This document shows, one piece after another, positions 430 to 7,178 of a stretch of DNA of 7,178 nt; within the stretch, counting starts at the first letter, position 1; each line of letters begins with the position of its first letter. Under the pieces are notes generated by a model. That model did not search any database. It saw only the letters and a list, made by a program, of their open reading frames with translations, and was not told where the DNA came from. The stretch is from a virus (lineage: Duplodnaviria > Heunggongvirae > Uroviricota > Caudoviricetes), in IMG/VR virus record IMGVR_UViG_2548876941_000009, one strand, 5' to 3'. Position numbers and translations under genes: made by a program.

Positions 430-503
430 CTCTGTTAAGCGTGAGCTACGTAAAAAATAATTTTTAGTGGGTATATCTGTTCAGAAGAAATCACGTAGCA
501 CAC
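430..503. repeat. 74-bp intergenic repeat, copy A, between the tape measure stop and the next gene
   Basis: Near-identical (71/74 by eye) to 2607-2680 in direct orientation. Contains imperfect inverted-repeat arms GTGAGCTACGT and ACGTAGCACAC separated by about 40 bp of AT-rich spacer. Confidence 0.85.
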
Positions 504-517
504 GGATATATAAGAAA

Positions 518-2606: not shown

Positions 2607-2680
2607 CTCTGTTAAGCGTGAGCTACGTAAAAAATAATTTTTGGTGGGTATATCTGTTCAGAAGATTTCACGTAGCACAC
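2607..2680. repeat. 74-bp intergenic repeat, copy B, immediately upstream of the tape measure start codon
   Basis: Direct repeat of 430-503 with 3 mismatches (A/G once, AA/TT once). Ends 8 nt before the tape measure ATG and is preceded by a terminator-like hairpin at 2685-2726. Confidence 0.85.
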
Positions 2681-2684
2681 ATAC

Positions 2685-2726
2685 AAAAAAGGGAGAAACT
2701 ACCGATATCACTCGATAATCTCTCCC
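2685..2726 (-). terminator. Putative intrinsic terminator downstream of the 70-aa gene
   Basis: On the minus strand, stem GGGAGA/UCUCCC (plus 2721-2726 pairing 2691-2696) is followed by a U6 run (plus 2685-2690 are A6). The loop is long (24 nt) but contains an internal UAUC/GAUA pairing. Confidence 0.45.
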
Positions 2727-4693: not shown

Positions 4694-5080
4694 TTACACA
4701 GACGCTTTAATCTTGTAGTATTGACTGCGTGATAAGCCGTATTTCTCAGAAATATAACTTTGTGATTGTCCTTTGGTGATTGCATCAATGATTAAATCTT
4801 TATCATATCTGTTACCATTGGCTTTGTGCTTGTCACCATTTTTAATAGAGTTGAAATTATCAATTAATTTAATGGCGTCTTTAAGGTCGTCTTCGTAAGT
4901 ATAATCAAAGCCTCTGATAAACTCGAAATCACCATTATCTTTTTGTGCTCCAGTCCAGATATCAAATCTTGAGGCTAATTGCTGGTGGGTAAACTTGGGC
5001 TTATTGGTTTGTGTTACGTCTTTCCAGACTTTACCGTCAAATCTTACCAGATGGTCTCGATGCTTATAAAAATCATACAT
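4694..5080 (-). CDS. Putative Mor/C-family phage transcriptional activator (128 aa) with C-terminal helix-turn-helix
   Basis: C-terminal DLIIDAITKGQSQSYISEKYGLSRSQYYKIK resembles the Mor C-terminal HTH region of phage Mu as recalled from memory (DLRIWNDFNGRNVSELTTRYGVTFNTVYKAI). Similar size to Mor (about 129 aa). Start ATG overlaps the upstream gene stop (TAATG). Confidence 0.5.
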   Translation of the reverse strand: MYDFYKHRDHLVRFDGKVWKDVTQTNKPKFTHQQLASRFDIWTGAQKDNGDFEFIRGFDYTYEDDLKDAIKLIDNFNSIKNGDKHKANGNRYDKDLIIDAITKGQSQSYISEKYGLSRSQYYKIKASV

Positions 5081-5361: not shown

Positions 5362-5694
5362 TTAAAATCCTTCTGCTTGTGCGTACACGTCAAATTCAAA
5401 GTCTGGCTCACTGGTTGTAAGACTGATATTACCAACGGTAATATGATGCTCGACAATACCAATTAACTTTGCGCACATCACAGCAAGTAATGCGCAATAG
5501 GCATCGCTTGGTAACTCATGGCTTAACCTGGTTGCCTGACGCTGGAGATGGTTTGTCACGGTAGCTGAGTTAATTTCATCAAGATTCTTTAGAAGATAAA
5601 ACAATTTCTTGTTGTATTTTGGGTGCCCCCTCACTTCTGCAAAATCCGATAAGAATGTCGTCAAGCTTGCTCGGTAATTGCTCGTAGCTGTCAA
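5362..5694 (-). CDS. Hypothetical protein (up to 110 aa), start codon uncertain
   Basis: Longest frame begins with TTG at 5694 with no obvious SD, and overlaps the 3' end of the 112-aa ORF by about 116 nt. The frame is needed to fill 5362-5578 in an otherwise tightly packed operon. Confidence 0.45.
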   Translation of the reverse strand: MTATSNYRASLTTFLSDFAEVRGHPKYNKKLFYLLKNLDEINSATVTNHLQRQATRLSHELPSDAYCALLAVMCAKLIGIVEHHITVGNISLTTSEPDFEFDVYAQAEGF

Positions 5695-5917
5695 AGTTAG
5701 CCAGATAATTCTTGATGCTGTTCTTTGTTGTTTTGCGTACTGACATATAACGACTCCTCGGTGTAATTGCCCGAATTACTTCGTCAATGCCTTTGCGTTC
5801 TGCTCTGGTGAACTTAGGTGCTTCGTGGCTGGTGGGGGAGTTTGTGTAAGCGTAGGAATTGTATCTGTTACGTTGTCTCGATGCCTGAAGCATCGCTCTA
5901 AATTCTGCATCTCTCAT
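5579..5917 (-). CDS. Hypothetical basic protein (112 aa), first gene of the operon
   Basis: ATG at 5917 preceded by AAGGA 8-9 nt upstream and by a promoter about 45 nt upstream. Arg/Lys-rich N-terminal half. Confidence 0.6.
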   Translation of the reverse strand: MRDAEFRAMLQASRQRNRYNSYAYTNSPTSHEAPKFTRAERKGIDEVIRAITPRSRYMSVRKTTKNSIKNYLANFDSYEQLPSKLDDILIGFCRSEGAPKIQQEIVLSSKES

Positions 5918-6002: not shown

Positions 6003-6032
6003 TTAACAATTTAGTAACATCTGTGGTATAAT
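6003..6032 (+). promoter_or_regulatory. Divergent sigma70-like promoter with extended -10
   Basis: TTAACA (6003-6008), 18-bp spacer, TGgTATAAT (6024-6032). Sits back-to-back with the minus-strand promoter, the two -35 elements 6 bp apart. Confidence 0.55.
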
Positions 6033-6054: not shown

Positions 6055-6399
6055 ATGAGGCGTGGCTATCGAGAATGGCCGCATGGTTATTGCATTGCAC
6101 ACAGACCTCTTCAATCGCTCTGTAACGAGTTAAACGGCCTCTTCAGGTCAACTATAAGGTCAGGTACTTTTTTGTGCCAGAATGCGATTGAGAGCGTCCT
6201 ACAAGGAAAGCTAATGGTAAACCTCCCTGAACTGGGGTCACCTGATGTATGGGCTGGTGGAGGTATTGGACTGATTGCAGGTCTGCTACTCCGCTATTTC
6301 ATCGTCAGAGTGTTTATCGTGTTCAGATTGTTTGGTCGTGAATGGTCATTTGACCTCAAGGACAGGACCCGAACAGACAACCACACAGAACCCCGTTAA
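6055..6399 (+). CDS. Hypothetical protein (114 aa) with one hydrophobic, transmembrane-like segment; could instead be the 5' part of a non-coding transcript
   Basis: ATG at 6055 preceded by GGAG(AG) at about 8 nt and by the strong promoter at 6003-6032. Sequence has the hydrophobic stretch GGGIGLIAGLLLRYFIVRVFIVFRLF but odd composition (Cys/Trp/His/Arg-rich N-terminus). Confidence 0.4.
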   Translation: MRRGYREWPHGYCIAHRPLQSLCNELNGLFRSTIRSGTFLCQNAIESVLQGKLMVNLPELGSPDVWAGGGIGLIAGLLLRYFIVRVFIVFRLFGREWSFDLKDRTRTDNHTEPR

Positions 6400-6526: not shown

Positions 6527-6900
6527 ACCTCTCTGACAGTGATTTCTAAAAGTTCTTATTTTTCAATTAGTTGTAATTAGCCAATATAATAGCTGTTCAG
6601 CTTCTTCACAGGGAAACTTCAGAGGCATTCTTAACCGTCCACTAAGTGGGAGAAGAGCGACATCCCAGAAAGGGAAGCTCCTTTCTAATTGGTATTGTTA
6701 CCAATCCCTAAACCGACTTCTTAACCCACCCTTACGTTATTCGTTCACAGTGTCGATAAGTGGTTTTGCCCTCTGTTTCTGTTATCATCGGGCTTACCTT
6801 GTCAGGGCTTTGAAATGTCCCTGTAACTCCCTCTTAACGGGAGAGAAAGAACATAGTGACCCCAAGCGAAGCGCCCCTCTAAAAAGATTTTTTAGCTATT
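6527..6900 (+). ncRNA. Candidate structured non-coding region of unknown class
   Basis: No plausible ORF beyond short peptides. Noticeably GC-richer by eye than the phage genes. Many local hairpins, for example AGAAAGG/CCTTTCT (6668-6687), ATTGGTA/TACCAAT (6689-6706), CCACT/AGTGG (6640-6650), CAGGG/CCCTG (6803-6823), CTCCC/GGGAG (6828-6844). Confidence 0.25.
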
Positions 6901-7081
6901 TTGTTTAAAGGCACATCAAACGATACATTTTGTTGATTTTGGTCAAAGACAAAAGCATTGACAAAATGGTAAGATTGTTCACATGACCTTACTTAACAGA
7001 CTTTTAAGAGCTTTTGAAACAGCCTGTTTAACAAGGTCACTACCTACGGTTCTTCGTTTCCCTTCTTTCTAGGTAGTCATC

Positions 7082-7135
7082 TGTTAAGTATCTTTTCAGA
7101 TATCTCTTTGTTAAGTATCTTTTCAGATATCTCTT
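7082..7135. repeat. Perfect tandem duplication of a 27-bp unit, TGTTAAGTATCTTTTCAGATATCTCTT, with palindromic core AGATATCT
   Basis: Units at 7082-7108 and 7109-7135 are identical. A partial third start, CTGTTAAG, follows at 7143-7150. Confidence 0.8.
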
Positions 7136-7178
7136 ACACTCACTGTTAAGATGTAACACACCTTCGGTATATCGTTAC

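Follow-up and report, generated by a model that had tools for sequence, protein, structure and literature searches.

Close to the right-hand edge of the 7,178-nt stretch analysed here (IMG/VR record IMGVR_UViG_2548876941_000009, hereafter the window) lies a perfect 27-bp tandem repeat. We found that this repeat is a recent, strain-specific duplication of one unit, and that the word recurring in and around it, TGTTAAG or in its octamer form CTGTTAAG, is a conserved, phased and orientation-structured word of the genome-end region of the Ounavirinae, the virulent phages related to Felix O1. On balance we lean towards a reading that joins two parts, in which the duplication itself is probably neutral and the octamer would be a genome-end recognition word of a helper phage, mimicked by the Escherichia coli chromosomal island of which the window forms most.

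Tandem Repeats Finder reported positions 7082–7135 as a repeat of period 27 with 2.0 copies and 100% matches, the unit being TGTTAAGTATCTTTTCAGATATCTCTT. This bears out the perfect duplication proposed in a first-pass annotation of the letters alone, and the palindrome that had been placed in each unit, AGATATCT, is indeed found in both. Along the plus strand, GTAGTCATC is followed by two copies of the unit, then by ACACTCA and then by CTGTTAAGATG. What had been taken for the partial start of a third unit, at 7143–7150, is out of register with the array, with 7 unrelated bases in between, and is a separate site present in all 39 aligned relatives; no third copy of the 27-mer occurs in the window at up to three mismatches. 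The first copy (7082–7108, plus strand) is common to all relatives, and the second (7109–7135, plus strand) is an extra copy found in this sequence only.

The relatives that cover the site came from 10 E. coli genome loci, 2 E. albertii loci and 41 metagenome loci, amounting to ~46 distinct sequences, and every one of these has a single 27-bp copy. The nearest, NZ_CP151067 (locus L001), is 99.6% identical to the window and differs from it by 26 substitutions, an extra C at 5626, a missing A after 5998 and the 27-bp insertion, which is the sole large indel between the two. In megablast comparisons with 5,426 complete E. coli genomes, no match to the window runs past 7108; the alignments stop there, at 7099 or at 7033. 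A sensitive search with 7040–7178 (139 nt) matched 178 of these genomes, none of them at 99% identity or above; in the closest strains 139 query bases aligned to 112 subject bases, which indicates that these strains have one copy. A scan of species-representative genomes returned E. albertii as the sole match, with little cross-genus diversity. With two copies in this sequence alone, the earlier suggestion of a recent duplication holds. Like an ordinary tandem duplication of the variable-number type, it consists of two perfect head-to-tail copies in one strain only; unlike such a duplication, it belongs to no copy-number series among relatives and has no flanking microhomology. The junctions lack microhomology (the array comprises exactly 2.0 copies), so a simple slippage event at short repeats does not explain how it arose. 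The new unit sits 27 bp, or ~2.6 helical turns, from its twin and takes the local direct sites from two to three. As it sits in an island copy that is already decaying (see below), this addition of one copy is probably neutral.

Within the window, we counted the word against shuffled controls. The octamer occurs 5 times against 0.35 expected and the 7-mer TGTTAAG 6 times against 1.67 expected, and 0/200 shuffles reached either count, in agreement with the impression that the octamer is commoner than chance would allow. That impression had included five occurrences on the plus strand, which is correct for the 7-mer and not for CTGTTAAG, which has four plus-strand occurrences and a single one on the minus strand (6992–6999). 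The octamer occurrences are not independent, since two belong to a pair of 85-bp repeats elsewhere in the window, one in each, and one was created by the duplication. The 12-mer TATCTKTTCAGA has four matches against 0.01 expected, two in the 85-bp repeats and two in the 27-bp units. Near the tandem repeat, TGTTAAG-type sites stand in direct orientation at 7081, 7109 and 7143 and inverted at 6992. The first octamer site (7081–7088, plus strand) is embedded in the 15-mer TAGTCATCTGTTAAG, and the second (7143–7150, plus strand) has a TGTTAAG that is invariant in 39/39 aligned relatives. The distance between these two sites is 34–37 bp in 28 of the 29 relatives that keep both, and 42 bp in the remaining one (L044). 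The inverted copy (6992–6999, minus strand, read on the plus strand as CTTAACAG) is conserved and forms the inverted-repeat partner of both. On the minus strand, the duplication also yields a weak sigma-70-like match at 7087–7114 (TTAACA-16-GATACT, 9/12), with the -35 element in the second copy and the -10 element in the first. As a candidate -35 box (TTAACA) in general, the octamer was rejected, for no consistent -10 element follows the sites.

The word is the iterated motif of the terminal repeats of Felix-O1-like phages. In Felix O1, 16 of the 51 genomic copies of TGTTAAG fall within a 1.6-kb unannotated stretch (12305–13928) between convergent gene blocks (binomial p ~1e-15). The record of coliphage vB_EcoM_E9 starts and ends inside the equivalent stretch and carries an exact 580-bp direct repeat, for which its authors reported direct terminal repeats by PhageTerm (PMC11737134), and in the Felix-O1-like Salmonella phage UAB_Phi87 a 608-bp direct terminal repeat (DTR) was shown by Bal31 digestion and run-off sequencing (PMC4837284). 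There are 13 copies of TGTTAAG in the 580-bp DTR of E9 versus 2 in the next 3.4 kb. At its left end, three inverted copies lie at positions 6, 17 and 28; towards the right end, eight direct copies occupy 399–567, with spacings of 31, 31, 11, 20, 20, 11 and 44 bp. The copies are thus phased at multiples of ~10–11 bp, inverted on the left and direct on the right. Part of the DTR, namely the array at 467–552 and nothing else, is still detectable in Erwinia phages, which belong to another genus, and the record of Erwinia phage Hena2 likewise starts with a sequence full of TGTTAAG. (The record of phage SUSP1 begins at the terminase gene and is of no use for locating genome ends.) It is this concentration, phasing and orientation, together with the conservation of the array in Erwinia phages, that identify the octamer as a word of the genome-end region. 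By inspection, the two boundaries of the E9 DTR (L056 1–30 and 555–580) are inverted copies of GCCC(CC)TTAACAT(T/C)C..., such that each cut site is flanked by an outward-pointing TGTTAAG-type word.

By profile and pairwise comparison, the DNA around the tandem repeat is homologous to this ~580-bp DTR of Felix-O1-like (Ounavirinae) virulent phages. A segment at 6994–7107, read on the minus strand, corresponds to the interior of the Felixounavirus DTR (E9 DTR ~230–344, inverted). A profile of the island region matched the E9 DTR interior over 6993–7100 of the window, with nhmmer E-values of 2e-6 to 2.5e-6, and Felix O1 with 3e-4, and pairwise blastn gave 6e-5 to 3e-6 for the same interior segment. 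On the plus strand, 7068–7165 is colinear with the start of the DTR array (E9 ~385–455): the site at 7081 is homologous to the first site of the right-hand array, and the two array sites follow in the same order, spaced by 31 bp in the phage and 35 bp in L001. The 15-mer around the first site is exactly common to the island and the E9 DTR (2/2000 shuffles reach its score), and L001 27013–27038 is 88% identical to Felix O1 13144–13169. Past the end of the window, a ~250-bp island segment matches E9 715–458 in inverted orientation (nhmmer E = 7e-19), across the right boundary of the DTR. The region around the repeat is thus homologous to a terminal repeat that has experimental support, and it carries the iterated TGTTAAG motif. 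An earlier idea that the duplicated copies were themselves terminal repeat units came close, for TGTTAAG and the surrounding DNA are homologous to the DTR but the 27-mer is not itself the repeat unit. With the 580-bp DTR of E9 and the 608-bp DTR of UAB_Phi87, the island version has in common TGTTAAG, the 15-mer, the interior segment with its hairpin and the right-boundary segment; unlike them, it is chromosomal and rearranged, has 2–3 motif copies at the locus as against 13, and is not known to form a physical end of DNA.

The island itself is ~11 kb long, and its gene order is constant across insertion sites: a large serine recombinase, a Dit-like distal tail protein, a tape-measure protein, five to six small unknown genes, a ~1.9-kb non-coding stretch in which a single small open reading frame (ORF) is annotated, and variable cargo that often includes a small serine recombinase. 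The large recombinase has Resolvase, Recombinase and Zn-ribbon domains (Pfam), the identity of the Dit-like protein is likewise confirmed by Pfam, and the tape-measure protein matches Pfam and PHROGs families. The same ~11-kb architecture occupies four insertion sites (tonB/yciI, inside a DUF72 gene, inside mdtG, and wrbA/ymdF), and the island is in this respect what a satellite is expected to be, a compact integrative element with its own integrase at several chromosomal sites. A frequency survey, which covered the non-coding region of the island only, found matches in 514 of the 5,426 complete E. coli genomes, roughly a tenth. In Felix O1, homologues of island proteins are limited to the tape-measure (28% identity) and Dit-like (73% identity) proteins, the products of two adjacent genes there, ORF67 and ORF68.

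The copy of the island in the window shows several signs of damage. Positions 1–55 are the end of an insertion sequence (IS)-type element, 98–100% identical counterparts of which occur in several phage records and many E. coli and Yersinia plasmids; many genomes have copies as well. As the element truncates the Dit-like gene, this island copy is defective. Megablast against the phage collection matched only this end and the Dit-like gene, and against the plasmid collection only the IS-type end region (within 1–82). Some of the copies adjoin IS66-family genes, and related islands are interrupted by IS100-family genes. The extra C relative to L001 lies in a C-run at 5626 and frameshifts a 184-codon gene (5362–5917, minus strand), and the missing A after 5998 falls in a T/A run just upstream of a plus-strand promoter-like site (6003–6032). 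These two differences are either real decay or homopolymer sequencing errors.

How might the island use such DNA? The octamer would serve as a cis-acting, protein-recognised word of the helper phage's genome-end region, of which the island would carry a rearranged mimic. Its most likely use would be recognition by the packaging or concatemer-processing machinery of the helper, by which the island may be mobilised as a satellite, and the extra unit would add one more site; mimicry of a replication origin is the main alternative to packaging. Spelled out in full, the proposal becomes considerably more tentative, and we regard it as possible but doubtful: the island would represent an undescribed satellite family of E. 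coli and E. albertii that parasitises virulent Felix-O1-like myoviruses, much as the phage-inducible chromosomal island-like element (PLE) parasitises ICP1. It would integrate by its large serine recombinase, bring its own tape-measure and distal-tail proteins and be packaged via the rearranged helper DTR, with the phased TGTTAAG array as a terminase or end-processing signal.

Helper-dependent induction, packaging and transfer of the island are hinted at, indirectly, by the DTR-like DNA, the helper-like tail genes and the co-oriented Chi sites. Chi (GCTGGTGG) occurs five times in the window against 0.10 expected, always on the plus strand (750–757, 2078–2085, 4981–4988, 5828–5835 and 6253–6260). 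The same orientation prevails by 18 to 2 in four islands and by 110 to 9 in the 41 metagenome loci, and Felix O1 has one Chi site in 86 kb. This bias suggests that the island passes through linear or rolling-circle DNA with one RecBCD-exposed end.

The PLE, a Vibrio cholerae satellite whose helper is the virulent myovirus ICP1, resembles the island in being a compact element with a large serine recombinase, a link to a virulent myovirus and non-coding repeats. No homology between the two was seen, no test aimed at it having been made, and the island differs in having tape-measure and Dit-like genes and no recognisable replication initiator or capsid-remodelling gene. Satellites that mimic the packaging sites of their helpers include P4 with its cos site and the cos- or pac-type phage-inducible chromosomal islands (PICIs) and Staphylococcus aureus pathogenicity islands (SaPIs). 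The present island is like these in being a satellite-like element with a copy of a helper genome-end or packaging sequence. Unlike them, it would take as its model a phage with a short exact DTR rather than a cos or headful pac site, and we know of no described satellite for that packaging type.

Several observations weigh against genome-end mimicry. The direct-orientation match over the unit is marginal (nhmmer E ~0.01–0.02), we found no convincing counterpart of the left DTR boundary, and the DTR-like pieces that the island does have are rearranged, one of them inverted and the boundary-like piece ~560 bp away and also inverted. At the repeat locus, the island has two direct copies and one inverted copy of the motif, versus 13 in the phage. 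In IMG/VR the island was found only inside larger contigs (25–54 kb), with no free ~11-kb viral contig. Both the satellite status of the island and the function of the motif are inferred. Finally, the functional form could be an RNA, given the compensated hairpin stems, the CCUUCGG-type loop and the plus-strand G-U pairs described below.

Among the alternatives, the one that survives best, though we consider it unlikely, is that the TGTTAAG sites are origin iterons bound by an initiator of the helper phage or of the island, to which the duplication would add one iteron. The motif is short, iterated and phased (here at multiples of ~10–11 bp), as are the protein-binding words at lambda ori and P1 oriR, and it lies in AT-rich non-coding DNA. 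Satellites such as PLE carry iteron origins, and an island with no recognisable replication gene would have to borrow helper functions. The arrangement in the phage points elsewhere, since the motif copies extend throughout the terminal repeat and, in inverted orientation, reach up to its two boundaries; with a homologue of the right boundary also present in the island, this favours end recognition over an origin. In the island, no Rep-like gene adjoins the sites (none of the island ORFs tested matched a Rep, primase or helicase family), in contrast to iteron origins with their adjacent initiator gene, and neither an AT-rich unwinding element nor a DnaA box was identified, although no search was made for DnaA boxes. 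Plasmid and phage iterons are also 17–22 bp long rather than 7–8 bp. At least three conserved direct repeats of such a unit were not found: across the ~46 relatives only the 7–8-bp word is conserved, and the interior of the 27-mer, single-copy in all of them, varies freely and is the most variable part of the region. The iteron interpretation offered in the first-pass annotation consequently does not hold for the 27-mer.

Somewhat less likely still is that the plus strand is transcribed into a structured non-coding RNA, with CUGUUAAG and CUUAACAG as pairing elements and the duplicated unit as an extra hairpin. Such an RNA could form alternative helices within itself, or it could pair in trans with the CUUAACAGAG leaders that precede the tape-measure, Dit-like and early operons, much like the antisense control by P4 CI or P1 C4. 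Two hairpins bear on this possibility. The first, CTACCT...AGGTAG at 7040–7076 (plus strand), has a stem that reads CTCTT/AAGAG in other islands and CACTA/TAGTG in the phage DTR; the stems differ and remain paired, which indicates that the hairpin is kept by compensatory change. On the plus strand it shows 20 G-U pairs against 8 A-C pairs. The second, GTAAC-(ACC TTC GGT)-GTTAC at 7153–7178 (plus strand), reaches the window edge and has a CCUUCGG-type loop; by inspection of three variants, its outer stem in relatives is GTAAC/GTTAC, GATAC/GTATC or AGAACC/GGTTCT. RNAalifold moreover pairs 6992–6999 with 7143–7150, a TTGACA is conserved at 6958–6963, and UUAACAGAG is present in three minus-strand leaders. 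Against this, Rfam has no match in the window even at E ≤ 1, the consensus fold, at -6.25 kcal/mol, is a weak one and its long-range helix shows no covariation. In the DTR of virulent phages, TGTTAAG recurs in either orientation with a DNA-like helical phasing, and the hairpin at 7040–7076 is also kept in that DTR. A scan for tRNA and tmRNA genes found none in the window.

The proposed leader targets involve the long repeats of the window, which had been described as 74 bp long. These repeats exist, but their true length is 85 bp. One copy (430–514, plus strand) lies between the tape-measure and Dit-like genes, starts with CTCTGTTAAG and holds TATCTGTTCAGA; the other (2607–2691, plus strand), 91% identical to it, lies just upstream of the start codon of the minus-strand tape-measure gene. 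On the coding strand, the two are therefore directly upstream of the tape-measure and Dit-like genes. Within them, GAGCTACGTRAAA ... TTTCACGTAGC form a conserved inverted repeat with a variable loop between its arms. No copy was detected ahead of the tape-measure gene in L002 and L003, and L001 has a mutated motif at that place, which speaks against an RNA target; antisense-RNA control of the tail genes was rejected as unlikely, since neither the target motif nor the 85-bp repeat is conserved at this place. The kinship that had been proposed between the 27-bp unit and these long repeats is plausible, with CTGTTAAG followed by TATCTKTTCAGA in the same order in both. The composite CTGTTAAG...ACGTAAA stands at the start of both 85-bp repeats and occurs once in Felix O1, inside its DTR. 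BLAST of the 85-bp repeat against phage DNA gave chance matches only, and a profile built from eight copies had no significant match in phage sequences, so that the link of the 85-bp repeat to the DTR is one of short shared words only.

It is improbable that the second 27-bp copy is absent from the organism and reflects an assembly or sequencing artefact. The duplication is known from this one sequence, which also has two single-base homopolymer differences from its nearest relative of the kind typical of long-read error, and its junctions offer no microhomology by which slippage could be explained. A perfect, in-register duplication of 27 bp is not a typical error of any platform, however, and in L044 a 7-bp duplication in the hairpin loop that also holds the 27-bp duplication shows that the spot tolerates indels.

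Least credible is that the repeats are recombinase sites, either arm-type sites of an integrase or crossover sites of a segment inverted by a small serine recombinase: a gene for such an enzyme (PHROG 'DNA invertase') lies ~600 bp downstream of the window-end match in L001 and a perfect 16-bp inverted repeat brackets ~300 bp that include the 27-mer, but both recombinases are serine recombinases, the segment has one orientation in all relatives, other variants of the island have an imperfect version of the inverted repeat, islands that lack the small recombinase still carry the region, and the motif is abundant in virulent Felix O1, whose annotation includes no recombinase or integrase. Serine recombinases are not known to use arm-type sites. 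The arm-type recombinase sites that the first-pass annotation had raised, a feature of tyrosine integrases, were rejected on these grounds and because the repeat lies ~9 kb from the island end that bears the large recombinase; a Hin/Gin-type invertible segment was rejected for its single orientation, its imperfect inverted repeat and the persistence of the region where the invertase is missing.

The left arm of the 16-bp inverted repeat, TTAACGGGAGAGAAAG, is at 6834–6849 (plus strand), and its partner, CTTTCTCTCCCGTTAA, is found in L001 directly past the window-end match. Both belong to a purine-rich 'ACTAAG...GTGACC' module, and the inverted repeat is a by-product of the way in which these modules are arranged. 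The module, ACTAAG and GTGACC around a purine-rich run, occurs four times in the island's non-coding DNA, three times direct and once inverted (6640–6680, 6833–6875, 7035–7078, which is the inverted one, and L001 27258–27300), and once in the phage DTR.

Further elements lie in and around the non-coding region. About 140–350 bp past the window end, L001 27320–27530 combines a TTGACG-17-TATAAT promoter, ~12 GGTNN pentamer repeats and an intrinsic terminator. In 119 Ounavirinae phage records, an unannotated intergenic region is ~80% identical to the GGT-repeat part of this element; in phage SUSP1 that region sits between the DNA ligase gene and the next gene. The element resembles a small RNA in which GGU triplets are phased, possibly one that binds a ring-shaped RNA-binding protein or acts as its sponge. 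Within the window, a 61-codon plus-strand ORF (6159–6344) with a hydrophobic stretch is conserved in relatives and is preceded by a TTAACA-18-TATAAT promoter at 6003–6032; its indels among relatives, of 3 and 12 nt, are multiples of three, so that it is probably a real gene. Two pieces upstream of or overlapping its start (6102–6147 and 6162–6198) recur ~1.5 kb upstream, at 86–89% identity, in most aligned relatives (L002–L004, L007, L009 and L010; for example, L002 10541–10660), where the recurrent copies are intergenic and beside an HNH endonuclease gene. In many genomes, free-standing genes for a DNA N-6-adenine methyltransferase, an AP2/ERF-domain protein or an HNH endonuclease interrupt the non-coding region (relatives of 5900–7700), and such interruptions are typical of homing-endonuclease traffic in phage-like DNA.

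By itself, the duplication is an ordinary mutation. Its interest lies in the word that it copies, conserved, 7–8 bp long and helically phased, by which the genome ends of these virulent phages are marked. Felix O1 and its relatives are a large group in wide use, in Salmonella typing and in biocontrol. In the searchable literature, neither the TGTTAAG architecture of Ounavirinae terminal repeats nor the island family turned up, and literature searches for a Felix-O1 satellite returned nothing relevant. Taken together, the motif architecture and the island family that appears to mimic it suggest an undescribed satellite–helper pair, and roughly one in ten complete E. coli genomes matches the non-coding region that carries these genome-end homologues. 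If the island is a satellite, it would offer a tractable E. coli counterpart of PLE–ICP1 and would be, as far as we know, the first satellite whose helper has a short exact terminal repeat. It would then also open a direct route to studying end recognition and cutting in such phages, and it may constitute a widespread resistance or interference factor for phage therapy and biocontrol.

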